DNA of 64,000 nucleotides from a virus, in IMG/VR virus record IMGVR_UViG_3300025405_000013, positions 6,339 through 70,338 of that record; one strand, given 5' to 3'. Below, piece by piece: positions 8,038-54,871 of the stretch. The notes beneath the pieces were generated by a model. That model ran no database searches. It was not told the origin of the DNA and saw nothing but the letters and a program-made list of their open reading frames with translations. The position numbers and the translations under genes are program-made. Every line of letters starts with the position of its first letter. The first letter of the stretch is position 1.

Positions 8038-8796
8038 ATGAATATTGCAGAAGGTAACGGCCCTAAGCAAGTTAAAAGAACGTGGCCTACAGGCCAGTTT
8101 GTTAGTATTTACGGCAATGGTAGTCAAGCCAATGTTAATCCAGCTGCTGTACCCTACCCCGCTGCTTTTAGTGGTGGCCAAGTAGGAGCTATTAGTGGTA
8201 GTAGTAGTACCATTAACTACACGAGCCCTGGAGCTATGAACCCTGGCCTTAATCTTAATGTTAATGGTAATGCTGCTCTTGATGTAAGTTTTATTTGTGC
8301 TCCAGATGCAGCTGTAACACTTCAAGATATTCAATCAATTACTGTCGCTCTCAATGCAGAAAGTGGTTGGAGTGGTACTTCTGCTGTAGCACTACAGGGC
8401 ACTTATGACCGCTATACTCCTAATGCCTACTATACTTCAATCTCCGGACTCTACAACTCCACTAACTGGACAACGATTGTAACCGGTTCAGTTACTACTG
8501 CTAATAGTACTGTACTTCTTAAGGTTCCGGTTGCAAGTGGCGTCTTCTATAATGCCTATAGAATTATCGCTTCTGGTGGCACCGGTATTATCGACTGGAC
8601 AATTCCGGGTATGTTCCTTGACCTTAGTGCTAAGCAGGTTGGCCAGGAAGCCATCTGGGCTAATGGCAATATTGGCCAGGCCAATATCCAAGACAACGAC
8701 GTTCTTATGATCTCTGGTGGAGCTGTAGCAGGCTATACTGAAAATGTTCCTCCACTAAGTAATATCCAGGCCAACACCAACTACATCGGCCGTTAA
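8038..8796 (+). CDS. Putative virion surface protein (low charge, SG-rich)
   Basis: GGAG RBS; beta-rich Ser/Thr/Asn/Gly composition like the tail proteins. Confidence 0.65.
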   Translation: MNIAEGNGPKQVKRTWPTGQFVSIYGNGSQANVNPAAVPYPAAFSGGQVGAISGSSSTINYTSPGAMNPGLNLNVNGNAALDVSFICAPDAAVTLQDIQSITVALNAESGWSGTSAVALQGTYDRYTPNAYYTSISGLYNSTNWTTIVTGSVTTANSTVLLKVPVASGVFYNAYRIIASGGTGIIDWTIPGMFLDLSAKQVGQEAIWANGNIGQANIQDNDVLMISGGAVAGYTENVPPLSNIQANTNYIGR

Positions 8797-8824
8797 AAAA
8801 TTAATATACTATACTGGAGACATC

Positions 8825-9016
8825 ATGGAGAGAGAACAAAGAATTCACAAGACAGCTTCACGTACTGTAGTAAGCACTAACTGGACTCTGGGTGGTGACA
8901 AGATCCTACTAGTAGAGGGCGGTGGTGGTATTATTCGTCACTCTGGCGGTGCTGGATTTTACGGATGTGGTTGTGAACGAATTGCCGGAATTGATTCTTG
9001 TAGTTGCGGCTTCTAG
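8825..9016 (+). CDS. Small Cys-containing hypothetical protein
   Basis: GGAG RBS; 63 aa with CGC...CSCG. Confidence 0.6.
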   Translation: MEREQRIHKTASRTVVSTNWTLGGDKILLVEGGGGIIRHSGGAGFYGCGCERIAGIDSCSCGF

Positions 9017-9029
9017 ATAGGAATAGTTA

Positions 9030-12536: not shown

Positions 12537-12569
12537 TGTAATACGCCCTTTAGTCTTAGGATAGTTAGT

Positions 12570-12761: not shown

Positions 12762-12762
12762 A

Positions 12763-18820: not shown

Positions 18821-19501
18821 ATGGCTACAACTCCCAATGTTGCAACAGAACAGACAGTAAAGCAGACAGTACGTGCTGCTACTCAAGGTGGTGCCAACAG
18901 CTATACTGCTCAGCCGCTTAGTTTAATTAACGCTGCAAACCTTACCAACGGCCTTTGGACCCTGCTCGTACCTAGTGGTACTAGTACCTTTACTATCCAG
19001 AGTTCACTCGGTACCACAGCAACCATCACCGGTTCCTTTACTAGTGGTACTACGGTTAGCGGTCTAGTTACTGCCCTGTCTACTACCGCTTTGAGTGGTG
19101 TAGCCTTTACGGTCAATGCCAACGGTGGTCAGTTCCTCGGTACTGGTGCTGTAGATCTCATCCTAGGTAGTGGTGTAAGCTTGAGTGTCAACTCTCTTAC
19201 CGGTGCTACTCCTACAATTACCAACGTTAGTGTTAGTACAGCCAATGAGACCATCGCTTACCCCAACTATGTAGGTACCCCCAATGCCACTCCCACCTGG
19301 GTAGATGACGCTACAGTTCACGCCTACCAGCTGGTCGGTAACGGTGTAGTGGCCACTAACTCCGGTATTGTTGAGCAAAAGCAAGTTCGTCAGATCCAGA
19401 CCAACTTCTCCGAAACTCAGGTATACAACGGTTACTTTACACTCTACAGTGGTAACCTTAACCAAACCAAGCAACGGAATACTAAGCAACAGCAGTGCTA
19501 G
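18821..19501 (+). CDS. Putative virion structural protein
   Basis: 226 aa, Thr/Ser/Gly-rich, almost no charged residues. Confidence 0.7.
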   Translation: MATTPNVATEQTVKQTVRAATQGGANSYTAQPLSLINAANLTNGLWTLLVPSGTSTFTIQSSLGTTATITGSFTSGTTVSGLVTALSTTALSGVAFTVNANGGQFLGTGAVDLILGSGVSLSVNSLTGATPTITNVSVSTANETIAYPNYVGTPNATPTWVDDATVHAYQLVGNGVVATNSGIVEQKQVRQIQTNFSETQVYNGYFTLYSGNLNQTKQRNTKQQQC

Positions 19502-19627
19502 ATGGAACATGAGCCTTTTAATGTAAAGGTCGAAGCAGTAATTATTAGAGCCAATGGTGACCGGGAAGATCTCGGCACCATTGGTTCTACTACTTTAAAG
19601 GACGATCATGAACACGGTATTGACTAG
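19502..19627 (+). CDS. Small ORF not in the track (41 aa, MEHEPFNVKVEAVIIRANGDREDLGTIG...)
   Basis: ATG directly after the previous TAG; fills the gap and overlaps the next start. Confidence 0.5.
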   Translation: MEHEPFNVKVEAVIIRANGDREDLGTIGSTTLKDDHEHGID

Positions 19628-21203
19628 TGCTACCAGAAGTAACCTGGTTCAAGCATTTTTGGGTAATTTTAGTACAGCATCAGGCAACTATCTTCCTCTT
19701 ACTGGCGGCACGATTAGTGGCAACTTAGTAGTTGTTTCAGGTTTAACTGTTAGTGGAACAGTTACTGCAACTGGTATCCAAATCACTGAAAGCCAAGTTA
19801 CAAATCTTACTTCTGACTTAACAAATATTTCAGGCGCACTGAATACGAACGCCAATAATATTGCCAACCTTAGTGGATCATTAACAACCCTAAGCGGTCA
19901 ATTTGTTACGTTATCTGGTCAGTATAACACTACTAGCGGGATTGTAACTACCGCAACAGGCAACATTGCTTCTCTAAGCGGTAGTCTTAACACCGTTAGT
20001 GGTGTAGCTTACGGTGCTTTACAACGTTCTGGTGGAACTATCACTGGTAACTTAACGGTTACTGGTTCTTCAACGTTCCAAGGTGGTGTATATTTCACCA
20101 GTCCTTATGTTGGTGGCATAGCAGCAACTTCTGGCCAGTCAATAGTTTACAATGGCACGCAATGGTTGCCAATCTCAATTAGTGGTGGTGGAGCCAGTGG
20201 TACCAATGCCACTACTCTACAAGGCTACCCCATTTCGTCTTCTACTCCAGCTAGCGGTCAAAGCTTGGTATGGAATAACACTGCGTGGACACCAATTACA
20301 ATTTCTGGTGGGACATCAGGCAATTTCTTGCCAATCTCAGGTGGAACAATATCAGGCAACTTAACAGTTGTCAGCGGTTTGACCGTTAGCGGTGCGGTAA
20401 CAGCAACTGGTATTCAGATTACCAAAAACCAAGTTACTGGTCTTGTAACTGATCTTACTAATATTAGTGGGAATATAACGACTACCAATTCTAATTTGGC
20501 TACACTTAGTGGCCAGTACGTATCTACTTCAGGGAGCTTGACAACTCTTAGTGGCCAGTATGTTGTAACTAGCGGCAATGTAACCACGCTAACCAGCCAG
20601 TTTGTAGCCTTGAGTGGATCATACGCAGTTACATCAGGCAACTTGAATACAGTTAGTGGTGTAGCTTATGCAGCGTTGCCATCAGCCGGTGGTTCTATCA
20701 CTGGCAACCTTGCTGTAGCAAGTGGTTTGACTGTAAGCGGAAATAACGTTCTTACCACTATCAGTGGCATTTCTGCCGCTGGTGACTTGATTGGAACTTA
20801 CCCAGCTCCAATCCTAAACGACACAGCAAACGTAAGAAGAATTGTCACCGGTATTATCGATGGTAATCCCCGTGTAATTACAGTCCCGGGCTCAGCAACA
20901 CCTTTATCTTCTGTAAACCCTGCTAATTATGATGTAGTATTAGTTAGCGGACAAGGCGTTTCAGTTACATCCATGGCATTTGCAAGCAATACAGTATCAG
21001 GTGAAAAAACAATACGCATTGCCTTCACCAATATTGCAGGGCCATTTAACATTCCTGGTTCTGCTTGGACAGCGGGAAGTTTTGAGCCTTCTAGCATTGC
21101 ACTGCCTACAGTTCCACCCTCTTCAGGTCGTGTAGATTACGCATTTGTTTGGGATCTAACGATTAACCCTAGTGGAGCTTGGCGCATTGTTGGAATCGTA
21201 TAA
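19608..21203 (+). CDS. Fibre-like protein with SG-heptad coiled coils
   Basis: YLPLTGGTISGNL repeats, LSGQFVT heptads, NATTLQGYPI..GQSLVWN..W repeats. Confidence 0.8.
   Translation: MNTVLTSATRSNLVQAFLGNFSTASGNYLPLTGGTISGNLVVVSGLTVSGTVTATGIQITESQVTNLTSDLTNISGALNTNANNIANLSGSLTTLSGQFVTLSGQYNTTSGIVTTATGNIASLSGSLNTVSGVAYGALQRSGGTITGNLTVTGSSTFQGGVYFTSPYVGGIAATSGQSIVYNGTQWLPISISGGGASGTNATTLQGYPISSSTPASGQSLVWNNTAWTPITISGGTSGNFLPISGGTISGNLTVVSGLTVSGAVTATGIQITKNQVTGLVTDLTNISGNITTTNSNLATLSGQYVSTSGSLTTLSGQYVVTSGNVTTLTSQFVALSGSYAVTSGNLNTVSGVAYAALPSAGGSITGNLAVASGLTVSGNNVLTTISGISAAGDLIGTYPAPILNDTANVRRIVTGIIDGNPRVITVPGSATPLSSVNPANYDVVLVSGQGVSVTSMAFASNTVSGEKTIRIAFTNIAGPFNIPGSAWTAGSFEPSSIALPTVPPSSGRVDYAFVWDLTINPSGAWRIVGIV
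19985..20035 (+). repeat. Exact 51-bp direct repeat, copy 1
   Basis: TCTTAACACCGTTAGTGGTGTAGCTTACGGTGCTTTACAACGTTCTGGTGG, identical at 26839-26889. Confidence 0.9.
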
Positions 21204-25200: not shown

Positions 25201-25737
25201 ATGGCAAATAATTTTTATATTGGTTGGGGAACGGGTAGTGGTACCGCTTCAGCAACAGACATATCTCTTTTTAACCCCGTAGGAACAGTTATTTCTGGTA
25301 CGACCAGCGCTTTTACTACCTCTACTTCTGGAGATACTTTTATATCTACTGGTTTGTTGACTGCGAACAATCTCTACTCAATTACCGAGGTCGGCCTTTT
25401 TGATAGTAATTCTAGTTCAACCGTTAGTTCATTGTCAAATCAAGTTAACCCCACAGATACCACAATTACTGTCAGCGGTTACAACCTTTTTCCAGCTACG
25501 TTCCCGTTCAATATCCAAGTCACTTCAGAAGTAATGACTGTAATTTCTGGTAATGGGACCAATAGCTTCAATGTAATTAGGGCTACAAATGGCTCTAGTA
25601 AGGTGACAAGTATTATTCCTTCGCTTACTCCAGTAGTGTTGCCAAATAGCAACATGTATATCAAAAGTACTTTTGCTGGTATCCATTTGTTTCCTGAAGA
25701 TAGCGTTCTGTTTAAAGTAATTGTCCAATTTTCTTAG
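25201..25737 (+). CDS. Virion protein of the YIGWGTG...ITEVGLFD type
   Basis: Motifs typical of fibre-anchor/collar proteins (recalled, not searched). Confidence 0.65.
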   Translation: MANNFYIGWGTGSGTASATDISLFNPVGTVISGTTSAFTTSTSGDTFISTGLLTANNLYSITEVGLFDSNSSSTVSSLSNQVNPTDTTITVSGYNLFPATFPFNIQVTSEVMTVISGNGTNSFNVIRATNGSSKVTSIIPSLTPVVLPNSNMYIKSTFAGIHLFPEDSVLFKVIVQFS

Positions 25738-35312: not shown

Positions 35313-35816
35313 ATGGCTAACAAACCACAATCAATTTTTCGCGTAGGTGGAGGTTATACTACCTTCAAGTACAACAATAACGTCTTGGCTTACTGCCAGA
35401 TGATTCGTGAAACTGCTCCTCAGCCAGTTGCACAGCCTACGCCCGTACAACCCCTAAACTCATCCTACCCGATTGAGATCGCTCTACCGAATGCATTGAG
35501 TGCTGGTACTCTAGAACTTACTTTCTACGAAACTTGGATTACTGAAGTCTGGGCTGAGCTAGCCTTGGGTGATGTTAATAGTCCATACTATAAGGCCGGA
35601 GACCTATTGGCAGTTTATCAAGCCCAACTGTCTAAGGGTGCAGTCAGTTGCAGTAAGATTATTGCTGCTCCAGGTGGAGGTTCAAGAGTTATTACTTACA
35701 CTGGCTGTACAGTTACCAATGTTACGATCGATGAAATGATTCAGATCGGAACAATGACCATTCCCAAGTCCATCACCTTGATGTACCTCTCAAGAAGTGA
35801 AAACGTATTCTCCTAG
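35313..35816 (+). CDS. Tail tube protein
   Basis: 167 aa directly after sheath; PVQPL..YPIEI, GTLELTFYETW, YTGC. Confidence 0.8.
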   Translation: MANKPQSIFRVGGGYTTFKYNNNVLAYCQMIRETAPQPVAQPTPVQPLNSSYPIEIALPNALSAGTLELTFYETWITEVWAELALGDVNSPYYKAGDLLAVYQAQLSKGAVSCSKIIAAPGGGSRVITYTGCTVTNVTIDEMIQIGTMTIPKSITLMYLSRSENVFS

Positions 35817-37682: not shown

Positions 37683-38110
37683 ATCCCTACGTAGTATTTC
37701 ATACTGAGTTGGCCTATGAAAGAGGCCTACTACAGAGTAAGGACCCTAGTGAAGTACAAGAAAAGCTTCTTAGAGTGTATGTCACTCGAAAAGCCGAACA
37801 AAAAATACAGATGGAAGAAACCAGATTTGAACAGGACTTGTTGATTAATCAACCGGAAATGTATCGAGAGTGGAAGAAGCATCAAGAAGAGAATAAAGAG
37901 AACGAAGACATCGTTTGGGGCTTCCCACAAAGCATTGAAGAAGCTCGTGAGATCGAAAAACTTATTGCTCAAATGGAGCAGCAGAGTGTACAGACTGCTA
38001 AAGCTCCAGACGAAGGTGTTGTAATAGTTGACACTCTGGGCAATAGACTCAATACCCTAGAAGCAATACCCGGACTAGACCTAGACCAACTTGGAGAGAC
38101 TGATGGCTGA
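37155..38110 (+). CDS. Tail assembly chaperone long form via -1 frameshift at C CCA AAA (37664-37670)
   Basis: The -1 frame is open from 37664 (RYELDPYVVFHTELAYERG...) and joins the 37709 ORF; established G/GT arrangement. Confidence 0.8.
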
Positions 38111-41643: not shown

Positions 41644-42299
41644 CACTCTATAGTCCTAAATCGAACTCTACTATAGTATACGATGTTTGGATAGCAAGTA
41701 TCTCTACTGCTACTAATAATCAGTATGCACAGCAGCAGCTAAGAGATCACATGAGCTTTCAGCCCATTCGTCGTAGTGAAATGTATGTTCAGTTTACGAT
41801 CGCTTGGCCTCTACAAACTGCCAATGTTCCCCTTACAGTTCCAGCAGGTTTTGAGGGCATTGATTATAGAGACGGTTTTACTAGAATGAATACTTTTCAG
41901 TCTGCTATTAGAGACCATCAGCAGGCAGCAGTTAGTTCATTAGCAGCACTTCCTATGGTACTTAACTACAACCCGTCTATGGTACACGGAAAGGTTGATA
42001 AATTAACCTCTCTTTCCTGGACCGGTAATACAGCCCCTACACCATCTACTCTAGTATATAGCGGTTGGGTACAACAGTCAGAGCAAGAGTATACTCGCTA
42101 TAAGAACCTCTTTCTTAGAAACTATACTATGAATATTCTAAACCCCAATATCTCTTCGACTCCTCTTACCAGTATGGTAGTAAATAGTCAGTTTGCCCCT
42201 TCTTCTTCTACACAAAATAATTATGGTTCAGATTGGCCCAATATTGCAATTTTGGCAACTCAAACAGCAGCAGCTATAAACGGGATTAAGCAACAATGA
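41622..42299 (+). CDS. Baseplate-associated protein
   Basis: 225-aa ORF in the baseplate cluster. Confidence 0.6.
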   Translation: MAGNATVALYSPKSNSTIVYDVWIASISTATNNQYAQQQLRDHMSFQPIRRSEMYVQFTIAWPLQTANVPLTVPAGFEGIDYRDGFTRMNTFQSAIRDHQQAAVSSLAALPMVLNYNPSMVHGKVDKLTSLSWTGNTAPTPSTLVYSGWVQQSEQEYTRYKNLFLRNYTMNILNPNISSTPLTSMVVNSQFAPSSSTQNNYGSDWPNIAILATQTAAAINGIKQQ

Positions 42300-44995
42300 G
42301 TTTTGACCGTTCGGGTACATTTGCCTATAGCCCAGATATCCAAGTGTCGATCTATACCCAAAAACAAGGGGCTATAGACGTCTCTAGAGATATCGTAGAT
42401 TTCTCAATAAACCGACAGACTAACGCTGTTAGTAATTTTAGTTGCACTCTAAGCAACCCACTACGTAAGTACAATCAGGTAATTAATACCATGGACCGTA
42501 TTGTAGTGTTCCTCAAGAGGACCAGTTGGTTGCAAGCATTTACCGGTTATGTCACTATGGCCCCTATTGAGACCCTGGTCCCTACTCCGGTTACTATCCA
42601 GGCCAGTTGCACCCTTTACCAGTTGCAAAACACTTACTGGGATGATACACTAGTACAGTTCCAGCAACTCTTACTTAACGCTTCTGACAGTGCTGCGGTA
42701 AACACTGACGCCCTTATTAATGATGGTGGTATTGTACAGGCTACAGTAAATGTACTAAAGGGAGTTGCCGGATGGAACCCCAGTAGAATTCATGTTCAAA
42801 ATATTCCTAGTTCTTTCGTTAAGGCAGCTTCTTCAGCCTATAATTTTGCTGCACTACAAGACTCACAACTAGATCAAACTGCAGTAACTCAGCTAGCTAC
42901 ACTACTAGGCGCTGCTGGAGTAATTAATGGTAATCCGGTAAATAGCTATAGTAATAATGCTCTACTACCTTTAGGCGCACCCAACTATGTAACCTTTAAT
43001 GCCAACTCTGTATCCCCAATGCCCTATCTAATAAGTAGCCCGAGTCAGTCATCTCCCAAAAACCTTCCGGGATTGGCTCCAGTTGGGCCAGTTAATACCA
43101 ATAAAGATATCTACTGGTGTGCTGCACACTGGGCTTACCTAGACTTACCGGGGAGTGGAACCTCTACTATTTCTGGAGTACAGGCAGCACAAAAGTGGCT
43201 TGCTGGAACTAGTGGGACTGGCCAGTACCTTTATGTAGCAAACACCACCACCGGTAGTGGAGTAGTGCTTAGAGCCACTAGTGTACCCGAAGACTATGAC
43301 GGTAACTATGATTCCAATTTCCAGGGTCTACAAGTACACCCTACAGTCTTTACATACTTGGGTGGAGAGCTTAATAGTAAACTACCCCCACCCGCACTTC
43401 AAACTTATACTCCAATAACCACTCTACTAGTCCAATGGGCTGACCCCGCCAAAGTATCAGGTACCGGTCCTCAAAATCTTACCACTCCCCAAGTGGGAAC
43501 TGCACAAAGTGAACTGGGAGTTAACCCTCTAAGTTCTGGGACAGTTACTCCTACAGAACTTGCTTCAGCTGCTGTTTCTTTGGCTTTAAAGTATGTAGGT
43601 GCAAACTATAGTGAGCTATCAAACTGGCGAGAGAATGCTCAAACAAGTGCTCAGCAAAGTAGTTTTGACTGTTCGGGATTTGTTAACTTTATTTGGAAGC
43701 AAGTGCTACAAAAAGACATTGGCAGCTATACTGGAGCCCAGTGGGGGACTCCTCCAAGCCCAAGCCCAGCCGGTATCTATATTGCCAATACTTCTCAACC
43801 ACAACCCGGAGACCTACTATACTGGCAGGCGGGTGGATCAGCAGCAACCATCGATAGTGAACCTAGTCACGTAACTATGCTAGTAGACTCCTTTGGGTCT
43901 AATGGTACTGCTACACAAATTGGAGACTCTTATTCAGCAGGTTCTGATAGTAGTGGAACTACTCTAATTAACGGTAAGCCAGACGGTTGGAATGCTTCTA
44001 GTAATGGTAAGACTACGGGTGTTACTACTGGCACTGTTAAATGGACTCTAATATCGGGTGGAGGAAATTCCAGCACTAACGGTATGGGTATGTACTATAT
44101 GGGTGCAAGAAGACCGGTTAGCCTTTCTTCGTCCTATAATGCTAGTACACAAAATGTCACTATTAGTGGAGTTAATGGAACCGCTATTGACCTTACCAAC
44201 TCATTTAACTTCCTACTTAATCCGCCAAATGTTAACCCACTAACTCAGCAGCTACAGGGTACTCCCCAAGCTTTTATTATGGACAATAGTCTTTTGAGTG
44301 ACCTACAAAACATTGTGGGTGCTGGACTAAGAAGCTTTATGAGTGCACCGAATGGTGATTTTGTTGCCTGGTTTCCTGACTACTATGGTGTTTATGGAAC
44401 TACCCCCGCTCTAGAAATTAGTGATGTAGAAATTATTGACTTTGAGATTTATCACGATGACTCACAGTTGGCTACACATGTAGCAGTCGTCGGTGATACT
44501 AACGGAGTCGGCCAGCAAGTTATTAGTGCCGACTATCTAACCAGTCAAGGTATTGTAAGTATCCAAGACAATACTACTCTCAATCTATTATTTGGCACTC
44601 TGGGAATTGGACCGAGTGGAGTTACGGCTGCTAAACTTAAGACTCAAGAGTTTTTGAACAAATACGGTATGAGACCTTATGTAGTTCAGCAGCAAATGAT
44701 TCACTCACACGAACTAGAATATTTATATGCTCTCCAAACCTTTATGCAAAAGTGGGCCAGTCAGTATGCTAGCCAAGTGAACCTAACCTTTATGCCCGAA
44801 CTATATCCGGGTATGAGAGTGATTATGAATCTTAGTGACGAAAATGGAGTTAGTCATCAGTACCAACTGTACTGTATGAATGTACAGCATCAAGGAAGTA
44901 GAGCTGGGGGGTTTACCACTCAAGCGACCTTTACCGGTATTATTAAAGACGGAAATGTTCTAGACTACGGTCTAAGTCTGTTCGGAAACGGTTAG
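42296..44995 (+). CDS. Baseplate hub protein with internal NlpC/P60 domain
   Basis: Hub-like termini (DVSRDIV, MDRIVVFLKR, FMPELYPGMRV) around FDCSGFV...QPGDLLYW...SHVTM. Confidence 0.8.
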   Translation: MSFDRSGTFAYSPDIQVSIYTQKQGAIDVSRDIVDFSINRQTNAVSNFSCTLSNPLRKYNQVINTMDRIVVFLKRTSWLQAFTGYVTMAPIETLVPTPVTIQASCTLYQLQNTYWDDTLVQFQQLLLNASDSAAVNTDALINDGGIVQATVNVLKGVAGWNPSRIHVQNIPSSFVKAASSAYNFAALQDSQLDQTAVTQLATLLGAAGVINGNPVNSYSNNALLPLGAPNYVTFNANSVSPMPYLISSPSQSSPKNLPGLAPVGPVNTNKDIYWCAAHWAYLDLPGSGTSTISGVQAAQKWLAGTSGTGQYLYVANTTTGSGVVLRATSVPEDYDGNYDSNFQGLQVHPTVFTYLGGELNSKLPPPALQTYTPITTLLVQWADPAKVSGTGPQNLTTPQVGTAQSELGVNPLSSGTVTPTELASAAVSLALKYVGANYSELSNWRENAQTSAQQSSFDCSGFVNFIWKQVLQKDIGSYTGAQWGTPPSPSPAGIYIANTSQPQPGDLLYWQAGGSAATIDSEPSHVTMLVDSFGSNGTATQIGDSYSAGSDSSGTTLINGKPDGWNASSNGKTTGVTTGTVKWTLISGGGNSSTNGMGMYYMGARRPVSLSSSYNASTQNVTISGVNGTAIDLTNSFNFLLNPPNVNPLTQQLQGTPQAFIMDNSLLSDLQNIVGAGLRSFMSAPNGDFVAWFPDYYGVYGTTPALEISDVEIIDFEIYHDDSQLATHVAVVGDTNGVGQQVISADYLTSQGIVSIQDNTTLNLLFGTLGIGPSGVTAAKLKTQEFLNKYGMRPYVVQQQMIHSHELEYLYALQTFMQKWASQYASQVNLTFMPELYPGMRVIMNLSDENGVSHQYQLYCMNVQHQGSRAGGFTTQATFTGIIKDGNVLDYGLSLFGNG

Positions 44996-44996: not shown

Positions 44997-47042
44997 ATGC
45001 CAGCACCAGTTAATAGAATCCAAACTAATGATATGGTTCGTAGAGTGGTTCTACTTACCAGCCCCACCAAGAGCCCTATGAGTACGGCTGATAATCCCAC
45101 CTACTACTGTATGTCAGTAGATATGAAGGGTTTTCAGATCCAAGTAGACCTACAAGCTCTCCCTCCAGGAGTAAGTATATCCCAGCTTCAACCAAACCAG
45201 GTTTGGTGGGTAGAAAGACGTACCACTCTATTTAGACTCTACCTCTATAGTGGAGTAATGGACCCGGTCACTCGGTCAATTAATACTGACTCACCACTAC
45301 CGGTTAATGCTACAGAGATTCAGGGAATTGCAGTTTCACCCACTACCCCCACTAACGGCCAAGTACTAGAGTATAATTCTACTATTAGTGGTTGGATTCC
45401 AACTACACTTAGTGGGGGAAGTAGTGGTAATGCTACACAACTTCAAGGCTATCCTATTGCTACAACAGCTCCTGCTAGTGGGCAGGTCCTAGGATGGAAT
45501 GGTGCTGACTGGATTCCTACTACCCCTAGTGGCAGTAGTGGTGGAAGTGGTATCACCCAACTCACTGGGGATGTTACCGCTGGCCCTGGTTCAGGCTCTC
45601 AGGCTGCCACTCTACAAGCGACCACTAATGTAGAAAATATTATTTCCAACAACCCTACAGTTACAACTCTAAGTGGTAATTTTGTCACTCTTAGTGGACA
45701 GCTTGCTACTGTTAGTGGAGTAGCATATGCTGCTCTACCTATTTCAGGTGGTACAGTCTCAGGCAACTTGGTTGTTGCATCAGGTTTAACTGTTAGTGGT
45801 GCTTTAACCGTTGGTAGTGAAGTAGACACTGGTGCAATGACAGTTGGCGGCAATCTCACCGTTACAGGCACAACCACTCTTAACAACACACTCGCTGCCA
45901 ACAGCGGTATCACCCTTGGTCAAGCAACAAATATAAATTTCCTAACTGGTGGTGGTTACCAGCTTTCTGTAAGCGGGTCAAACCCAGGAACAATTATTAT
46001 TCCTGGCCCTGGCCTTGGTTCAACCGATACTCTTGCAACTCTAAATGGTACTCAAACGCTTAGTAATAAAACACTTGCCACTACTACGGTATCGGGTAAT
46101 CTTGTTGTAGCTAGTGGTCTTACAGTTAGCGGTACTGTAACCGCTACTGGCATCCAGATCTCTGAAAGTCAAGTAACTAATTTAACTACAGATCTTGCTG
46201 CTAAATTCCCATATTCTGGTGGTACTATAAGCGGCAACCTTACGGTTGCTTCAGGTCTTACTGTTAGTGGTGGTATAAATATTAGTGGTACACTAGCCTA
46301 TAATGGGCAAACCGTTCCTTCAACCAACTATATTGCCAACTATAACTCAGGTTATGGTCCAGCTACTGGCTATGTACTGACATATAACCCCGGACTTGGA
46401 GTAATCTATAATAATTCTATTACCGGTGGTCTTATCCTACAGGGTGCTTCATCAGTCCAGAGCACCCTTACAGTAACATCAGGACTTACTGTCACCGGTA
46501 CCACTACTCTGGGTAGTGGTTATGTATCTGTAAGTGGATCAGGAACTTCAGGTTATATAACTGTTGGTGGAGCAGGTGGTTTAGTCTCTGCTGCCAATAT
46601 TAATGGAACTTCTGGTGTTTTTTCATCTAGCTTAACTAGTAGTGGCACACTATTTGTAACAGGTACCTCTACCCATGTTGGTAATGCTACTTTTAGTGGT
46701 ACAATTACATCAAATGCTTATCTACCTAACGTTGCAAGCATTACTGCTACATCCAATGCAGCCACCGTTAGTGGATCAACCTATACGTCTACTAAGGTAA
46801 CCAACAACTCTGCGGCAACCCTAGCTATTACTATGTCTACTACTGGTGCAGTAGACGGTATGCAGGCGATAGTTCGCATCCTCGATTTTAGCGCAGTTGC
46901 TCAAACTATTAGCTGGACAAATACTGAAAATTCACAGGTATCTGCTCCCACTACATCGAATGGTTCAACGACTCTTCCCCTAACTGTTGGCTTTATTTAT
47001 AATGGTTCCACTTCTAAGTGGCGCTGTGTGGCGGTGGCTTAA
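44997..47042 (+). CDS. Spike/fibre protein: baseplate-type N-terminus fused to fibre repeats
   Basis: Position after hub; repeats shared with 19608 and 25748; C-terminal KWRCVAVA. Confidence 0.75.
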   Translation: MPAPVNRIQTNDMVRRVVLLTSPTKSPMSTADNPTYYCMSVDMKGFQIQVDLQALPPGVSISQLQPNQVWWVERRTTLFRLYLYSGVMDPVTRSINTDSPLPVNATEIQGIAVSPTTPTNGQVLEYNSTISGWIPTTLSGGSSGNATQLQGYPIATTAPASGQVLGWNGADWIPTTPSGSSGGSGITQLTGDVTAGPGSGSQAATLQATTNVENIISNNPTVTTLSGNFVTLSGQLATVSGVAYAALPISGGTVSGNLVVASGLTVSGALTVGSEVDTGAMTVGGNLTVTGTTTLNNTLAANSGITLGQATNINFLTGGGYQLSVSGSNPGTIIIPGPGLGSTDTLATLNGTQTLSNKTLATTTVSGNLVVASGLTVSGTVTATGIQISESQVTNLTTDLAAKFPYSGGTISGNLTVASGLTVSGGINISGTLAYNGQTVPSTNYIANYNSGYGPATGYVLTYNPGLGVIYNNSITGGLILQGASSVQSTLTVTSGLTVTGTTTLGSGYVSVSGSGTSGYITVGGAGGLVSAANINGTSGVFSSSLTSSGTLFVTGTSTHVGNATFSGTITSNAYLPNVASITATSNAATVSGSTYTSTKVTNNSAATLAITMSTTGAVDGMQAIVRILDFSAVAQTISWTNTENSQVSAPTTSNGSTTLPLTVGFIYNGSTSKWRCVAVA

Positions 47043-47756: not shown

Positions 47757-48209
47757 ATGAAGACACTTGCAGTAAGTAATGGTGATATCCAGTTAAGTGG
47801 TGGTAGACTACTATTTAATACTGGAACTACAAAGCTCATCCAGGACCTCACTCTTTGGCTGCAAGAGCCACTAGGAACCGGCTATACTACCCCAGGTTTT
47901 GGGTCTACTCTTACAAGCCTAATTGGTGGGCCCCAAAATGGAAGTACCTTAAACACTGTACAAACTGAAATTCTTCGAGTGCTACAGCTCTACCAGGGTC
48001 AACAGATCTTAAATATCAAATCCGCTCAAAATAGTGCACAACTTGCTAACTGGAATAAAGACGAGATCATTCAGAGTATTCAGTCTGTAACAGTAGATCT
48101 ATACTATAATAGTATCGTAGCACAAGTCACTCTTCAAACACTAACTGGTAACCTAGTGAATCTTGGACTCACCATCGGAAATAATGGAGTAACCGTTAAC
48201 AATGGCTAA
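47757..48209 (+). CDS. Baseplate wedge gp25-like protein
   Basis: MKTLAVSNGDI...KLIQDL.LWLQEPLG...PGFGSTL. Confidence 0.75.
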   Translation: MKTLAVSNGDIQLSGGRLLFNTGTTKLIQDLTLWLQEPLGTGYTTPGFGSTLTSLIGGPQNGSTLNTVQTEILRVLQLYQGQQILNIKSAQNSAQLANWNKDEIIQSIQSVTVDLYYNSIVAQVTLQTLTGNLVNLGLTIGNNGVTVNNG

Positions 48210-50646
48210 TACTAATGACGTTTTAACTCGACTACTATCTACTCTCTCCCTTTCCGACCCAACCTGGGACACTAGTGTAGGTACTGCTACATATAAGATT
48301 CTAGAGTCAGTCGCTCAAGAAATCGCTAATGCTAGCAATAACTCCACCCTCCAAACTTATAGCTACAACATTAATACCAAGTTTGGCGCTGAACTAGATA
48401 GTTTTGTCAATCTTTTTGGGCTCTATAGACAGTTGGGAACTAGAGCCACTGGCACAGTTACTTTCTCTCTCCCCAACGGGTCTAGTACCAATACACTCTA
48501 CCCCATTCCGCTGGGTACCCAAGTGGCAGTCCCAATCGGCAACGGTTACTCTACAGCAATCTACTTTGCCACTACAGCACCTGCAGTTATTCCTTCAGAC
48601 AGTAACTATGTAGAAATTCCCGTAAGTGCAGTAATCCCTGGCTCACAGGGCAATGTACCTGCAGGAGCAGTTACTAACCTTATTAGTACTCTAGTGGGTA
48701 TTACTACGGTTATTAACAGTAATCCCATCTCTGGGGGAGCAGATCCAGAGACAGATAGTCAGCTTAGAGGGCGTTGGAACAATACTGTCTTTAATAACAA
48801 TCTAGGTACTAACGGCAAGTATATTGTCACTGCTCTACAAAACTCTAATGTCAGTCAAGCTACCTCACTTGGCCCCCAGCAGTACCTAAGTGAGCAACTA
48901 CAGGTTTCTGGTACTCTTTCTAACACTGGTGGTACCCCCACCACACTTACCTTTAACTTCGTAGCCTATAGCGGTATGACCGTAGGAAACACTACTTATA
49001 ATGCAACTACAAATGTCTCCTCCAGTGGTATTACAGTTGCCGGACTAACTCCTGCCTCTCTTCAGTCTTCTCTTAATACTATGATTTCTGGAGCACTCAA
49101 TACTGTTAGTGCTACAACTAGTGGTATTAACTTTACTGTTAGTGGCACTCTAGCAACTCTAAGTGGTGGAACTTTTACCATAACTTCCAACATTGCCTGC
49201 CCTTATGACCTTACTATGAGTGGTACTACTAATGCCACTACCGGTATTACCACGAGTGGTGGTACTACTTACTACCAATCCATTACCTCTAATAATCCAG
49301 ACATTGTCTACAATCTTTATGGAGCCACTTATTCTGGTTACCTTTTTCCACAGGGTGGAGAACTTGTAGGGCAATACCTAGGAACCAATAATCAGATCGT
49401 CTACTCTAATGGTACTGACTACATCTTTCCCAGTAGTCCATCTATCCAGCTAGCTCTTAACATCTATAATGGAAGTCACAACCCAGCAGAGTTTATCGGT
49501 AATACCATACAGTTAAACTCTGAATATACTTCAGCAGCTAGTAGAGCATCAGCCACTATGCCTACAGTTTCCAACTATGCTGACATCTTTATTAACGGCA
49601 CTACTCCCTCTACAGTAACTGAGCAAGTGATCTTTAACCCCTCTGCAACACTTAGTGGGCAAAATACAGCACAGACGGCCAGTAACTACATTTTAGCTAG
49701 TGGAATTAATGCTACAACTACTGCTTCAGGTGACTACTACATTCCGTTAACTCAGCAACCGGTTATTAACTTTCCCTCTCAGCTTACTACTAGTAACTCC
49801 GGTGTAGCCGACTATGTATACATTTGGAACACTACTATTAATAGCGGTATTAATTATCCGATTACCGTCAACTACTACAATGTAGGAACAGGTACTAGTC
49901 CGGTAGTATTCTCTGGTACTCTGGTTAGTGGCACCAACTTTATTCGCTGTACTAGCGGTAGTAGTATCCCTACAGGTCTAACTCTCCCTAGTGGCTCTGG
50001 AATCCCCGCTTGGAGCTATATCACTCAAACTACCAGTTCGGGTGTTACGATTAACAATACCGTTACCAGTAATAGCAGTATCACCACAATTACCGGAAGA
50101 AGTATCCTGTACCCCATTTATGACAATACTAGAACCGCTCTTAGTGTTCAAAGCATGACCGGTATTGCCGTAGAAGCAAATGTCTTTAATCCTGGTTGGA
50201 GTATCCCGGCTTCCACCACTTGGGGTACCTATACACACTCGGTAAATAGTGATGTTACTAGTGTAGAAACTCTTATCCAGCAATCTCGTCCGGTTGGAGT
50301 TAATACTCTAGTACACCAGGCAACTTTTGTTCCATTAGCTCTAAATGTCTCTATTGTATACTCAACTGGAGCCAATCAATCCACTACTAATGCCACTATT
50401 AATAACATAGTGAGTAATTACCTGGCAGGAGTCCCTTATCTAGGCACAATCTCTTTTGGTGCTCTATTGGGTCAAATGATCAATGTCTATGGAGTTAGTA
50501 ATATAAGACTAAATAGCATTAATATTGTCTCACCGGACCTAAGTACCACTATTAAGTCCTACACTAGTGACTTCAATCTTGCTAGTAATCAATTGCCCGT
50601 TCTCAATACCATTAACTTTACTGTAAAGGGAATGAGTAACTTCTAA
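48202..50646 (+). CDS. Baseplate J-like protein
   Basis: GAELDSFVNLFGLYR..GTRATGTVTF, GSQGNVPAGAV, GGADPETDSQLRGR. Confidence 0.85.
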   Translation: MANTNDVLTRLLSTLSLSDPTWDTSVGTATYKILESVAQEIANASNNSTLQTYSYNINTKFGAELDSFVNLFGLYRQLGTRATGTVTFSLPNGSSTNTLYPIPLGTQVAVPIGNGYSTAIYFATTAPAVIPSDSNYVEIPVSAVIPGSQGNVPAGAVTNLISTLVGITTVINSNPISGGADPETDSQLRGRWNNTVFNNNLGTNGKYIVTALQNSNVSQATSLGPQQYLSEQLQVSGTLSNTGGTPTTLTFNFVAYSGMTVGNTTYNATTNVSSSGITVAGLTPASLQSSLNTMISGALNTVSATTSGINFTVSGTLATLSGGTFTITSNIACPYDLTMSGTTNATTGITTSGGTTYYQSITSNNPDIVYNLYGATYSGYLFPQGGELVGQYLGTNNQIVYSNGTDYIFPSSPSIQLALNIYNGSHNPAEFIGNTIQLNSEYTSAASRASATMPTVSNYADIFINGTTPSTVTEQVIFNPSATLSGQNTAQTASNYILASGINATTTASGDYYIPLTQQPVINFPSQLTTSNSGVADYVYIWNTTINSGINYPITVNYYNVGTGTSPVVFSGTLVSGTNFIRCTSGSSIPTGLTLPSGSGIPAWSYITQTTSSGVTINNTVTSNSSITTITGRSILYPIYDNTRTALSVQSMTGIAVEANVFNPGWSIPASTTWGTYTHSVNSDVTSVETLIQQSRPVGVNTLVHQATFVPLALNVSIVYSTGANQSTTNATINNIVSNYLAGVPYLGTISFGALLGQMINVYGVSNIRLNSINIVSPDLSTTIKSYTSDFNLASNQLPVLNTINFTVKGMSNF

Positions 50647-51596
50647 TGCCCGGTAATATTTTTGCCATTACACTTCATCCGACTTTTGAACAAAAGGTTA
50701 GCAACTTCCCGGATGATGTTTATGCCTTTAATAATTTTGACAATCTAACCCTACTTATGAAAACTCTTCTGGGTCATGCTGGAACCGGGCAGTTGTCTAT
50801 GCTACAGACTGCTGCTAGACTCAATCAGCAGACAATAGAGTTCTCAGATCTAGATAATATTCTAGGACTAGTGGTCGGGTTGCAAAGAGCGGCTAGTGAA
50901 GTATATTCATTTGCCACCAACCCGTTTATTGACCAACTAAACTATACTCAATGGCAAGAGGTCAACCGCAAAGACGCATCCTACAGAGAGAGATTGATTG
51001 GAGCTGCTGAAGCACTACAATTAGGAGCAACTGTATGGGGCATCCAAGTACTGGCAGAAGCAGTTACTGGAGTTCCCTTTACAGTTGTAGAAAGTTGGAG
51101 GACTCCTAACTTAGGCCGTTTTAGTAGTCTCTCCACTGAAGTGGTTCTAGTGCCCATCTTGGATACTGGTGCCACTGTTACCCTTACCCAAGATGAGACC
51201 AATCAGTTACTAAGAACAATTGGTTCACTACTTCCTGCAAACTTTGTAGCTTCTGTTGCTAAATCACCCAAAACTCTATTGACAAATGTCACTGCATCCT
51301 GGGTAAGTGCCAAAGAAGGCTATAGTGAAAATTTCTTCATGAATCGAGTAGTGCAGGCCAACGGGGTCAATACTAGTTCAGTACAACAACCGGGTAGTAG
51401 TACTCGTTATTGGGTACAAAACTCTACCCCTACTACTGCTCCAGTATTTGCTCATTTACAGTCACAAGAAAAGATCATCGACAGTACTAGAAATATTTCT
51501 AGTGTAACAGTAAGCGGAAGTGCCGTAGCAAACCCCCAAGATAGTCTGGCAAACCCCCAGCTAACTGTTGGTGCTACAGTATACGGAGGACAATAA
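50646..51596 (+). CDS. Baseplate wedge (gpI-like) protein
   Basis: DASYRERL...GATVWGIQVLAEAVTG; follows J. Confidence 0.65.
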   Translation: MPGNIFAITLHPTFEQKVSNFPDDVYAFNNFDNLTLLMKTLLGHAGTGQLSMLQTAARLNQQTIEFSDLDNILGLVVGLQRAASEVYSFATNPFIDQLNYTQWQEVNRKDASYRERLIGAAEALQLGATVWGIQVLAEAVTGVPFTVVESWRTPNLGRFSSLSTEVVLVPILDTGATVTLTQDETNQLLRTIGSLLPANFVASVAKSPKTLLTNVTASWVSAKEGYSENFFMNRVVQANGVNTSSVQQPGSSTRYWVQNSTPTTAPVFAHLQSQEKIIDSTRNISSVTVSGSAVANPQDSLANPQLTVGATVYGGQ

Positions 51597-54500
51597 TGTC
51601 AGTTACTCCCCAGACAACTAACCCATTGCAGGCTTATGTAATCCCCAATATTAGCCCGTCTATGAGTGTAGATGGTCTAGTAGTAGACGGAGTATACGGT
51701 TATACCGGAGTTATTGACTCAATCCCTTCTAGTACAAACCCGAACTTCTTAGACCCAAACCTTAATCGCACTGATAGTAATAATAGTGTAACTACTCTAA
51801 CTCCACAGCCCAGTACCAGTTGGATTTCAGAGTCCGGTTATGGTGGCTTGTCTTCTACTCCCGTTGTACTAAACTATACCTTTGCTAGTGCCACCTACTT
51901 TAACCTAGTAGAGTTTCAGGTCCTTAACACCCCATGCTCTGTAAATCTATCTCTAGTCCAAACTGTTAGTGGAGTAACTACAACTAGTGGACTATACAGT
52001 GCTAGCTCTACGGGTGGAAACAATATCTACACTACCACCGACTGGGTCAATTACACTTTTGAGTCCAGTAATGGCACTATCCTAGCACCGGCCAATAGCT
52101 ATCTACAGCTCACTCTTACTAGAAATACTCAGGCTCAGCAATACTCTAGTACAGGAGCAACTGTCGATATTGCCTATAGTGTAGGTGTACAAAATCTATC
52201 TGTCAAATTACAGATTCTAGAACTATCAGATGCAACTCTAGCCAGTAAATATAACATTAGTGATGACAACCCCCAGCCGTTTCCTACAATTGTTACACAG
52301 AATGCACTAGGGTTTACCGAGAGTTACTCCCCGGTTATTGACTCAGTAGGCACTCTATTCAGTGGTTCTAACACAGCATTTGGCTCATATTGGAAGTGTA
52401 GTCCACAACCGGTCAAGGATGCTGTAGTGTACTTTTACACTCAGATCGGTTCTAATGCCACTCAAGTGACCACTAGTGGAGTTACCACTATGTCAGTTAC
52501 TCCTCAGACCATCAATCGAATGAGACTGGACCCTCTCTACACGGGCTGTAGAATGAACGTCTACTACACTACTGCCGGTTATGGTGGGCAGACTGGCCCG
52601 GTAGTGACAACCGGAGACACTCAAGATACTCCACTGGACTTTACCAATGTAGTCTGGTATCCGGTCAATAAAGACTTCGTGTTACGTAAGGGTTTTTACG
52701 AGTTGCCTCAAATTAACGCAACTTACCTTAAGTTCGAGTTTACTAGTTTAATACCGGAAGTGTATGATTTAGGATCATTTGATTCTATTACTAGAACTTT
52801 TAATGCATATCCTTATTGGGTAGAAGAATACTATGTTACTCTAGAATCTAATATCCAAGATATAAATAGTAATCAATACTCCGTATATTCTAATAATAAC
52901 ATCATAGTGCCGCCCAATGGTAGTAATCAACTTACTACTTCTACTGCTTTTGGTCTCGGTAATGCTACAGTTGCTCAAACTAATAACTGGCCCAACCTTT
53001 CAGCACTGAATAATTCTCAGATGGACAGTACTACAGTTGCCGCTTTAAATACTCAGTCATACATTACTGACCCTACTGTTAGTTATAATCTAATAAGTTC
53101 TAGTGGGCAATACAACGATACCAGTTATAGCAATTTTCTAACTCGCAGGTTCCCCTACGGCTCCACTCACTCTTATGAACAACTGACTCTAAGTCAAAAC
53201 TGGAACCAAGCGTACTTTACCGGCCTAAAGAGTCTTAGCTTTTTCTACCAGCAAACATATGATCAGCTTAATGCTATTCCTGGAACTCTTATCGCCAAAA
53301 ATGGTACGGTTAGTGGGTTTGTATCACAGGATGTAGAGTATGTTCTAATGAACCCTGATGACTACGCTCTTACTCCATACTTTAATACACTAGATACTTT
53401 TAGTAGTTTTTCAGTTGGAGTTGAAACCGTAGACTGGAAGAGTTTCTTAACCCAGGGACAACCTCTTAGTTCGGATATAAGTCTACTAAATGGACCTGCT
53501 GGCAATATTCTTAATATGGCCATGGGTAATACGACGGTTAGTCAAGTAGGCCCACTAGGCCTTAGTACCATCTATAGTGTTAGTGGCAGTAGTACCGGTT
53601 ACTCCTATGGACTACAGACCAGTAGCTATAATTCTGCTAACAACCTAGTGAGCTACTATGACTCTAACTTCCTCATCCCTAGTGGAAGCCCTGGCTTTAA
53701 CTGGTACTCGATTTCGGGTTCTACTATTACTCCAACTGGAGTAGTTGTCAGTGGAACATCTATTAGTGGACTTACCGTTAGTGGTGGGTCTTGGACTACG
53801 GCCTACAACTTTACTATCCCCAATGTCTATAGTGTTAGTGGTACTACTCCTTGGAGGGTCTCTCTGGGTACAGCAGAACTTGGTGGTATAGGATATGCCA
53901 CTTATGTACCTTCAGGGGGAGTTAACTACTACTTCCTGGTAAATGCTCAAACTCCTAATGCCAATACACTTCAACTCTATACTCGTTTTGTAACTACAGC
54001 AACTGGTATTATTGCAGGAACTACAGTTAGTGGCTCTGTAGTGGCAACATCTGGTGGAGCTATTACCACCCTAACCGGAACTAACTACTCAGCCGGCACC
54101 CCTAGTAACACTATCCAGCTGGTAATTAGTGGTAGTACAGCCACTCCCTACAACCTATACCAAATGGGTGTCTTTAATAGTCCTACTACTAGTTGGGTTA
54201 GTAGTACAGACCGAAGCAATATGAGAGTTAGTGCTGCTGCTAGAATCTTTTTGCCCAAGACCAATAATGGAACCTACCAATTGCAGTTAATTGCCACTAA
54301 TATTAGCACTGGCGGGTTAGTAATCTTGAAGAGTCAGAACTATACTAGTACTTCACTTCCCACACAAACTTGGATAGACCTAGGTATTAGTACCTTTACC
54401 CCAGGCAATAACTACACAAACTTTAAAGCCATTATCCAGCAAATTAATCCTGCTGTAAATGAGCAGTTCTATGTAGCTATGTTGGCTCCATTCTACTATC

Positions 54501-54871
54501 CACTTAGATTTGAGTATAATGTTACTTCTAGTGGGTCTCCTTCTTGGTCTCCCATTACTACTGGAATCAATAACCCGAATGCTATGATTAATGTCGGTAG
54601 TGCAAGTGGTATTCAGTTAAGGATGACCGCTCTCGATCCCAACACTTTCCTTTCGGGAGTGACTATTGTTCCAAACTATAAGCAGAACCCATACTATAGC
54701 AATATTGATATTGACTATATCGGGGACGGTATGACCAATGAACTTAATTCCAGAACTGACATCCATAAGAAGACCTACTTTATGCTTAACCAGGACCCAC
54801 ACCCCCTAGCCTTTAGTCTAGAAAATGTATGTAGTACGGTTAGTGCCTTTACACTAGATCTTTATTCTTGA
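51596..54871 (+). CDS. Large baseplate/tail structural protein
   Basis: 1091 aa, beta-rich, low charge; last gene of the structural block. Confidence 0.7.
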   Translation: MSVTPQTTNPLQAYVIPNISPSMSVDGLVVDGVYGYTGVIDSIPSSTNPNFLDPNLNRTDSNNSVTTLTPQPSTSWISESGYGGLSSTPVVLNYTFASATYFNLVEFQVLNTPCSVNLSLVQTVSGVTTTSGLYSASSTGGNNIYTTTDWVNYTFESSNGTILAPANSYLQLTLTRNTQAQQYSSTGATVDIAYSVGVQNLSVKLQILELSDATLASKYNISDDNPQPFPTIVTQNALGFTESYSPVIDSVGTLFSGSNTAFGSYWKCSPQPVKDAVVYFYTQIGSNATQVTTSGVTTMSVTPQTINRMRLDPLYTGCRMNVYYTTAGYGGQTGPVVTTGDTQDTPLDFTNVVWYPVNKDFVLRKGFYELPQINATYLKFEFTSLIPEVYDLGSFDSITRTFNAYPYWVEEYYVTLESNIQDINSNQYSVYSNNNIIVPPNGSNQLTTSTAFGLGNATVAQTNNWPNLSALNNSQMDSTTVAALNTQSYITDPTVSYNLISSSGQYNDTSYSNFLTRRFPYGSTHSYEQLTLSQNWNQAYFTGLKSLSFFYQQTYDQLNAIPGTLIAKNGTVSGFVSQDVEYVLMNPDDYALTPYFNTLDTFSSFSVGVETVDWKSFLTQGQPLSSDISLLNGPAGNILNMAMGNTTVSQVGPLGLSTIYSVSGSSTGYSYGLQTSSYNSANNLVSYYDSNFLIPSGSPGFNWYSISGSTITPTGVVVSGTSISGLTVSGGSWTTAYNFTIPNVYSVSGTTPWRVSLGTAELGGIGYATYVPSGGVNYYFLVNAQTPNANTLQLYTRFVTTATGIIAGTTVSGSVVATSGGAITTLTGTNYSAGTPSNTIQLVISGSTATPYNLYQMGVFNSPTTSWVSSTDRSNMRVSAAARIFLPKTNNGTYQLQLIATNISTGGLVILKSQNYTSTSLPTQTWIDLGISTFTPGNNYTNFKAIIQQINPAVNEQFYVAMLAPFYYPLRFEYNVTSSGSPSWSPITTGINNPNAMINVGSASGIQLRMTALDPNTFLSGVTIVPNYKQNPYYSNIDIDYIGDGMTNELNSRTDIHKKTYFMLNQDPHPLAFSLENVCSTVSAFTLDLYS

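Follow-up and report, generated by a model that had tools for sequence, protein, structure and literature searches.

Our analysis has shown that the ordered dipeptide Ser-Gly (SG) is strongly over-represented in the virion proteins encoded by a 64,000-nucleotide stretch of phage DNA, positions 6,339 to 70,338 of IMG/VR virus record IMGVR_UViG_3300025405_000013 (hereafter, the window). All 400 dipeptides were scored in the 50 open reading frames (ORFs) of the window with a composition correction for each protein. SG occurred 349 times against 175.7 expected (z 13.1), making it the most over-represented dipeptide of all; the runner-up was NP (z 5.0). The motif appears to be confined to the outward-facing parts of the virion proteins, judging from where it falls in their sequences. 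The most likely reading, which we advance tentatively and from sequence data, is that Ser-Gly is O-glycosylated by a family 4 glycosyltransferase (GT4) of the phage itself.

Each ORF was also shuffled 2000 times. Thirteen structural proteins had more SG than their shuffled versions at p < 0.05 (ORFs 8038, 18821, 19608, 21179, 25201, 25748, 29980, 33077, 33763, 35834, 44997, 48202 and 51596, named by their start positions), with observed/expected ratios (O/E) of 2.1-3.8 and per-protein p values of 0.0005-0.04. The small ORF 61302 likewise fell below p 0.05. In a set of 15 SG-rich virion proteins we counted 285 SG against 113.1 expected (O/E 2.52, z 16.2), and in the other 35 ORFs 64 against 62.6 (O/E 1.02). 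Since the 15-protein set was picked after the per-protein results were known, the all-ORF figure is the unbiased one. Control pairs in the same set stayed close to expectation: GS 119 (O/E 1.05), TG 0.95 and NG 1.11. The classical N-x-S/T sequons were not enriched either (196 against 183.0 expected). The SG excess is thus ordered and Ser-specific.

An artefact of composition, of local Ser/Gly-rich stretches or of a DNA-level word is very improbable indeed. Both Ser and Gly are abundant in the SG-rich proteins, which speaks for such an artefact; however, the mirror pair GS has the same expectation and yet is not in excess, so neither overall composition nor local Ser/Gly-rich stretches explain the SG count, and the shuffles point the same way. 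A cause at the level of DNA words was considered and rejected. The pentamers that code for SG sit in frame (AGTGG, for example, 141 times in frame vs 14 out), and all six Ser codons are used within SG (AGT 0.49, AGC 0.14, TCA 0.14, TCT 0.15, TCG 0.04, TCC 0.03), which places the selection at the protein level. In 200/285 cases SG follows a V, I, L, T or A (background 0.43), and in 127/285 a V, I or L (background 0.21). A common context, with T at -2/-3, I/V at -1 and T/V/I at +2, was seen in fibre and non-fibre proteins alike. An earlier, sequence-only reading of this DNA had claimed, from hand counts, an abundance of SG (in the sheath, over GS), the preference for a preceding V/I/L/T/A and a pattern at protein level with varied codons, and our counts agree with it on each point: 37 SG in 19608, 40 in the first 635 amino acids (aa) of 25748, 13 SG and 4 GS in the sheath, 7 in 18821 and 5 in 33077, with low values of 0 in the tube, 2 in the major capsid protein and 1 in the helicase. 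The SG-rich proteins of the window and their internal controls are as follows.

8038..8796 (+): 252-aa SG-rich protein upstream of the portal gene, with no PHROG family; 8 SG, 3 GS, 2.6 expected, p 0.0015
16746 (+): major head protein (major capsid protein, MCP), from PHROG/Pfam scans; 2 SG vs 0.9 expected
18821..19501 (+): SG-rich protein of 226 aa, encoded after the major head protein and from this position possibly a head decoration protein; 7 SG, 2 GS, 1.9 expected, p 0.001
19608..21203 (+): 531-aa fibre, its heptad module h-S-G-x-h-x-x duplicated internally; 37 SG, 9 GS, 9.7 expected, spacing 7 dominant
21179..25195 (+): 1338-aa SG-rich virion protein, no PHROG/Pfam match; 44 SG, 21 GS, 20.2 expected, p 0.0005
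25201..25737 (+): 178-aa small SG-rich protein; 5 SG, 2 GS, 2.2 expected, p 0.04
25748..28795 (+): 1015-aa fibre with heptad modules paralogous to 19608 and 44997 (BLASTP to 19608, E 9e-39); 46 SG, 23 GS, 17.0 expected
29980..30915 (+): 311-aa SG-rich protein; 12 SG, 9 GS, 5.4 expected, p 0.004
33077..33715 (+): 212-aa protein (phrog_2748), encoded immediately before the sheath; 5 SG, 3 GS, 1.4 expected, p 0.0095
33763..35304 (+): tail sheath, phrog_2839 (E 2.4e-34); 13 SG, 4 GS, 5.7 expected
35313..35816 (+): tail tube, beneath the sheath, phrog_2756, internal control; 0 SG vs 0.9 expected
35834..37084 (+): 416-aa protein whose C-terminal module is SG-rich; 12 SG vs 5.4 expected, of which 9 vs 2.05 in the last 116 aa
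37155 (+): tail assembly chaperone, preceding the 38091 protein
38091..40877 (+): 928-aa Gly/Ser-rich protein whose position after the chaperone suggests a tape-measure role, internal control; 7 SG, 10 GS, 10.5 expected
42296..44995 (+): 899-aa virion structural protein, phrog_2810; 12 SG vs 8.3 (p 0.12), a weak excess only in residues 281-630 (10 vs 5.7)
44997..47042 (+): 681-aa fibre, the third paralogue beside 19608 and 25748 (BLASTP to 19608, E 8e-21); 36 SG, 13 GS, 10.8 expected
48202..50646 (+): baseplate J protein, PF04865; 22 SG, 5 GS, 8.8 expected
51596..54871 (+): 1091-aa distal tail protein; 21 SG, 14 GS, 10.2 expected, p 0.0015, with a cluster in residues 651-860 (11 vs 4.4)
54903 (+): helicase, from PHROG/Pfam scans; 1 SG

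The position of SG within these proteins was informative. All 13 SG of the sheath lie within residues 39-287, taken as the outer domains, and residues 291-513 hold none against 1.8 expected. The AlphaFold2 (AF2) model of this protein (mean predicted local distance difference test, pLDDT, 86.8) matched the sheaths of phi812, AFP and pyocin in Foldseek over ~350 columns, with E-values down to 3.7e-12, and PF17482 or PF04984 is found in the sheath homologues. As is usual in sheaths of two domains, the C-terminal domain would be the inner one. On the model, five of the 13 sites are in loops, four in helices and four at strand edges. Similarly, 22/22 SG of the baseplate J protein are in an insert at residues 177-620, with none in 1-176 or 621-814. 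There was no SG excess in the tube, the connector proteins, the chaperones or the 928-aa protein at the tape-measure position.

Relatives nearer than ~25% sheath identity come from metagenomes only, and the same distribution is found among them. We aligned 96 sheath homologues (33-60% identical; three short hits of 99, P0056, P0067 and P0095, were left out) and 88 of 103 baseplate J hits (15 that were outside 780-870 aa or came after P0212 were left out). The whole sheaths hold 1068 SG vs 470.0 expected (O/E ~2.3), with 396 GS and with TG at 586 vs 634 expected. The excess is in the outer part (1007 vs 344.5, O/E 2.92), and in the core, after reference residue 290, SG is depleted (56 vs 136.7, O/E 0.41; GS 89, 0.65). 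This depletion amounts to about a single observation because the 96 rows share ancestry. In the baseplate J family, SG reaches 1763 vs 500.8 in the insert (O/E 3.52), as against 115 vs 115.4 in the N-terminal core (O/E 1.00) and 186 vs 142.3 in the C-terminal part (O/E 1.31). The motif is inherited across the whole lineage, with sites that are partly conserved. Sheath SG is spread over 107 alignment columns: at five of them half or more of the sequences have SG (322 SG), at 11 it is 20-50% (350 SG) and at 91 fewer than 20% (335 SG). Despite this turnover of columns the density is kept, with a mean of 10.5 SG per sheath vs 3.6 expected. In the closest relative, L160 (G001:C1:78317-96300, reverse strand), whose major head protein is 97% identical to that of the window, ORF 7064-13237 encodes a 2057-aa fibre with 103 SG, 25.8 expected and 23 GS. 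The homologue of 35834 in the closest relative L003 has 308 aa and 1 SG.

Further, Ser and Gly are gained and lost together, which shows that SG is selected as a unit across the lineage. This was seen by taking neighbouring alignment columns in which both residues are polymorphic and calculating the log-odds of their co-occurrence. For Ser followed directly by Gly, the mean log-odds was +1.77 in the sheath (positive in 87% of 30 column pairs) and +2.41 in baseplate J (positive in 86% of 43 column pairs). The adjacent controls G-S, T-G, N-G, S-T, S-A, S-N and A-G gave -1.28 to -0.08. Ser and Gly at offset 2 gave -0.72 and -0.64 in the two families, and at offset 3 the sheath gave -0.08 and baseplate J +0.43, the sole positive control. 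Shared ancestry widens the spread of these log-odds, yet it should not favour one ordered pair over the controls. An ordered dipeptide that is kept at 3-3.5 times expectation in outer domains and is absent from cores, in ~90 homologues of each of two families, is an unusual signal even if its cause is structural.

As the sequence-only reading had implied, the phage carries glycosyltransferase (GT) and gmd genes. Two GT4 genes and one gene for GDP-mannose 4,6-dehydratase (Gmd) lie downstream of the structural genes:

57186..58169 (+): GT4 glycosyltransferase, 327 aa; PF00534 30.8 bits (cut-off 26.4), phrog_2170 E 3.3e-30
58591..59865 (+): GT4 glycosyltransferase, 424 aa; PF00534 48.6 bits (cut-off 26.4), phrog_2170 E 8.9e-44
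60300..61259 (+): Gmd; TIGR01472 443.4 bits (equivalog cut-off 415), PF16363 E 3.4e-128

The 58591-type GT4 is a core gene of the lineage. It is present in 21/23 lineage contigs, the exceptions being 35% and 42% complete; a second GT4 match, of the 57186 type, was found only in the closest relatives, G001 and G002, among the 23. In the PDB, 58591 matches nothing but chlorovirus B736L (3oy2, E 2.6e-5), and a tblastn search of 50,697 phage records with it matched 11, none of them mycobacterial. In three sets of contigs from outside the lineage, 5/20, 4/18 and 6/23 had the GT family. The Gmd family was also considered as a dose marker and rejected, because it was found in 5/24 contigs, too few, and is confounded by incompleteness. 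Two neighbours of these genes are recorded here in their own right. Between both GT4 genes, 58166-58549 (+) encodes a WhiB-type regulator (phrog_472, E 4.5e-20), which indicates an actinobacterial host. Adjoining gmd, 61302-61730 (+) is a 142-aa ORF with 3 SG vs 0.4 expected (p 0.0015) and with no family match in PHROGs or NCBIfam.

The sequence-only reading had also proposed to see whether relatives without GT or gmd genes lack the SG excess, and the outcome went in the predicted direction. Contigs less than 60% complete and without a GT match were excluded from this comparison (those without a match among the 18 fragmentary contigs are 4-26% complete and uninformative), and L074 was kept as GT-negative since its hit holds a stop. 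In the 25 contigs of usable status, the sheath SG O/E was 1.56-3.23 with a GT (n=16) and 0.63-1.46 without (n=9). On a tree of sheath cores, the GT state and the high-SG state each change three times, and 3/3 independent pairs agree in direction. The best replicate, the group L072/L084, is distant: its sheath core is 25% identical and its sheaths reach O/E 3.23 and 2.38. In the L072 sheath, 21/23 SG fall between residues 70 and 330, and the last 270 residues are free of SG. This lineage has a GT4 and, in L082 and L083 (G040:C1:1-6000 and 70000-82000), two GT9 heptosyltransferase-like ORFs, Gmd, a GT2-methyltransferase fusion, a PfkB-type sugar kinase, a sugar C-methyltransferase and a nucleotidyltransferase fused to an RpiB-type isomerase. 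Another high-SG relative, L081 (G010:C1:63500-80000), has a sugar-gene run at 2425-9879 that includes a GT4, a GT10 fucosyltransferase, a weak GT25-like match at 22.8 bits (just below the cut-off of 24), three ORFs of unknown function and a Gmd-like dehydratase/epimerase. The complete and syntenic Gordonia phage Stormageddon has 84 SG, 80 GS and 64.9 expected in 22 structural proteins; we found neither the 58591-type GT4 family nor Gmd in it, other GT families not having been searched. As a wider comparison, an index of the locus (sheath +/- 10 kb) gave SG O/E values of 0.70-1.47 for ~75 other contractile-tail loci. The closest relatives L003 and L004 scored 1.17 and 1.14 on this index. They were considered as counter-examples and rejected, since 18 kb further upstream gives 143 SG vs 51.1 over 14 ORFs. 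The index under-samples the SG load, so low values on it are weak evidence, that of L149 (below) included.

Several observations weigh against glycosylation by the phage GT4. Only three independent contrasts support the association with GT status (two-sided sign test p 0.25), and no significance is reachable with three pairs; GC content and habitat are further confounders of GT status. L149, of whose record 21 kb was covered, combines three GT matches (best 4.6e-39) with a sheath of 12 SG and 14 GS and a locus O/E of 1.01. Among isolates, those with the nearest GTs have a weak excess: 82 SG vs 65.8 overall and 23 vs 10.5 in five tail ORFs in TJE1, and 137 vs 103.7 in S-CBS4. (In the latter, Synechococcus phage S-CBS4, L079, genes for a glycosyltransferase, a galactosyltransferase and a methyltransferase at 9916-12282 lie within the structural module, where they separate the portal gene from that of the head protease.) The 58591 protein also matches PF20706, a 'conflict-system' GT4 family (27.3 bits, cut-off 26); with this match, and with GT4 being a broad family, its target could be other than virion proteins. 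The MCP and the tube are not SG-enriched, which departs from the Che8 type, in which the capsid is the target. Finally, features of the fibres that will be described next belong on the same side: the place of the residue before Ser in a predicted trimer, and the resemblance of the fibre heptads to coiled-coil and beta-roll proteins.

These fibre data bear on the chief alternative, that SG is a structural device of fibre shafts and outer decoration domains, inherited with the domains and multiplied by repeats. It could take the form of a polar-then-small pair at heptad positions e/f, of an arc in a beta-helix or beta-roll, or of a Ser-capped turn, and the GTs would then serve, for example, to change the host envelope or in conflict systems. 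We regard it as possible though rather doubtful. The fibres 19608, 25748 and 44997 have genuinely paralogous modules in common by composition-corrected BLASTP, and these modules hold 80/285 SG; neighbouring SG in them are 7 residues apart 26 times and 5 residues apart 14 times. The sequence-only reading had supposed that many unrelated proteins converged on the motif. For these three fibres common descent takes the place of convergence, and the motif is inherited by the lineage; nevertheless, the excess persists when they are removed (166 SG vs 75.5 expected, with 74 GS). A wider kinship of the SG-rich proteins, suggested by long alignments of 20-25% identity in an uncorrected all-vs-all BLASTP, was rejected as a composition artefact; with the correction, kinship was found only among the three fibres and between 28792 and 47043. 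These last two are small proteins at 28792-29106 and 47043-47720 (+), each directly after a fibre gene, with a common 61-residue C-terminal module (66% identity, E 6e-25).

The fibre 19608 weakly resembles the tail needle gp26 (PHROG 1219, E 3.4e-6; PDB 4lin, E 0.026, over residues 61-126). The heptad register of this P22-type trimeric needle (4lin, 4zxq) aligns with those residues, weakly, and its coiled coil is polar-then-small at the aligned places as well (E-S, N-V, E-G, Q-T, D-G, Q-A), which fits a structural origin; in contrast to these mixed polar/small residues, the 19608 fibre has S-G in nearly every heptad. The AF2 monomer of 19608 was unusable (pLDDT 44.8). A three-copy ESMFold2 model of residues 40-165 scored 0.85 vs 0.00 for the best of three controls, on a score that is calibrated on pairs (its mark was reached by 21/30 solved one-chain pairs and 0/23 solved single chains) and that may here reflect memorised coiled coils. 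Its runs had at least 99% contact agreement and pLDDT of at least 94, with contacts in register at a period of 3-4. At all seven heptad sites of the model, the position before Ser lies in the core, with contacts in 3/3 copies, and Ser contacts the neighbouring chain in 2/3; packing therefore accounts at least in part for the hydrophobic residue that precedes Ser. In the same model, however, Gly makes contacts in 0/3 copies, so packing would need no Gly there and does not obviously require a uniform S-G after a hydrophobic residue. The Lolium-type ice-binding beta-roll family PF21300 is like the fibres in having heptads that end in hydrophobic-Ser-Gly, and it was detected in 4/20 fibre homologues (P0114 and P0117 of the 20 hits were left out of the alignment). 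The 19608 protein itself scores 17.8 bits against PF21300, below the cut-off of 30, and its trimer model differs from a beta-roll in having the contact period of a coiled coil. Conservation of SG at the five sheath columns above and the lack of excess in L149 despite its GTs also speak for a structural device. On the other hand, sheath sites occur in loops, helices and strand edges alike; the usual turn pairs N-G and T-G show no enrichment, and at the columns in question they are anticorrelated; variable columns hold two thirds of the SG in the sheath, with the density still kept; and the ~75 other contractile-tail loci have locus O/E values of 0.70-1.47. A different trans-acting reader, that is, another Ser modification (phosphate, acyl or ADP-ribose) or a host or environmental ligand that binds the exposed motif, is improbable. 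A selected, order-specific and exposed unit does not by itself say what reads it; yet no kinase, acyltransferase or ADP-ribosyltransferase was found in a PHROG scan of the 50 window ORFs (the record being 46% complete), and the sugar genes are the only modification genes found.

With this in mind, we return to O-glycosylation by the phage GT4. Ser-Gly would be a short recognition unit that is preserved where tail, fibre and baseplate proteins face the solvent, and its reader would be the phage's own cytoplasmic GT4 (58591), aided in this phage by the second GT4 (57186). The enzyme would attach a sugar to the Ser hydroxyl, with Gmd (60300) providing a GDP-linked 6-deoxyhexose precursor, and the Gly after Ser may leave the enzyme room. 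The predicted outcome is many O-linked glycans over the outer domains of the sheath, the fibres and the periphery of the baseplate. We infer that the GT4 acts on proteins and that Ser-Gly is its acceptor, and the same holds for the identity of the sugar. The fuller picture, of a two-residue sequon read by a GDP-sugar-using phage GT4 at ~350 sites on outward domains, kept as a unit in a large uncultured lineage of actinophage-like myoviruses and arisen again in a second, distant lineage with a sugar cassette, is one that we put forward with reserve. Virion glycosylation in phages is known from a few mycobacteriophages, and so far no sequence rule reads it from the genome. If the prediction is right, glycan coats would become predictable from metagenomic phage sequence alone, the target surfaces would be mapped at residue level, and a very simple pair of enzyme and peptide would be available for glyco-engineering.

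Every gene is on the + strand of the source virus record, which has 70,338 bases and is ~46% complete; the same window proteins are also present on a contig of 137,996 bases. Besides the major head protein, sheath, tube and sugar-gene products, PHROG and Pfam scans identified the portal, protease, tail chaperone, helicase, WhiB regulator and baseplate proteins. The portal region is part of a 1168-aa ORF at 9030-12536 (+), in which residues 665-1050 match phrog_2833 (E 6.6e-158) and the N-terminal part, at residues ~289-645, has weak matches to helicase and endonuclease PHROGs. A megablast search with 25 kb of the window gave no match in the phage records. The isolates that come nearest by sheath, with ~25% identity, belong to the cluster C mycobacteriophages and to the myoviruses of Gordonia and Rhodococcus.

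Virion glycosylation of mycobacteriophages Che8, Corndog and Myrna was reportedly described by Freeman et al. in 2023. According to PMC12363180, these phages glycosylate their virions by their own enzymes and the capsid is the reported target. The window phage is like them in being of actinobacteriophage type and in encoding its own GTs, and it is distantly related to the cluster C myoviruses (sheath ~25% identical); it differs in that its capsid protein, with 2 SG, and its tube, with 0, are poor in the motif and the Che8-type target is the capsid. Che8 gp6 and gp11, its major capsid and major tail proteins (L080 5051-5872 and 7613-8422), are not SG-rich and both end in G-S, unlike the C-termini of the window's MCP and tube. 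The sequence-only reading knew of no described phage sequon of this kind, and in the literature surveyed, which is not all that is in print, we found no phage Ser-Gly acceptor site and, for Che8, Corndog and Myrna, no internal dipeptide site used across the virion. The passages of PMC13445384 gave no usable data on phage acceptor sites, the text consulted of the Jabs preprint does not treat glycosylation, and a paper on the Kuenenia S-layer, in which no sequon was found, was not used as a parallel.

Chlorovirus PBCV-1 resembles the window phage in having a GT4 of its own (B736L, 3oy2) and is unlike it in being a eukaryotic virus. PBCV-1 encodes GDP-sugar enzymes, and its capsid glycans are N-linked. 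A precedent for the acceptor is found in bacteria. The cytoplasmic enzyme TibC adds heptose to Ser, not Thr, of TibA, and the mapped sites include N-S-G-G and T-S-A-A (PMC4358343). TibC and AAH, acting on TibA and AIDA-I, hyperglycosylate Ser only, in fibrous surface proteins built of repeats; the candidate acceptors of the window would match theirs in being Ser-specific (TG O/E 0.95). TibC and AAH are heptosyltransferases, in contrast to the window enzymes, which are GT4 with a GDP-sugar pathway; GT9-like ORFs were seen only in the L072 contig. In the xylosylation of animal proteoglycans, Ser followed by Gly is the minimal acceptor and the flanks are acidic. The window differs in that neither a GT14 nor a UDP-xylose synthase was seen (the GTs are GT4 and the dehydratase is Gmd) and in that the flanks of its SG are enriched in T, V and I. 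If our tentative reading is right, Ser-Gly in the window would nevertheless be the viral equivalent of the acceptor in proteoglycans, and the coat built on it the first glycan shield in phages that can be read from sequence.

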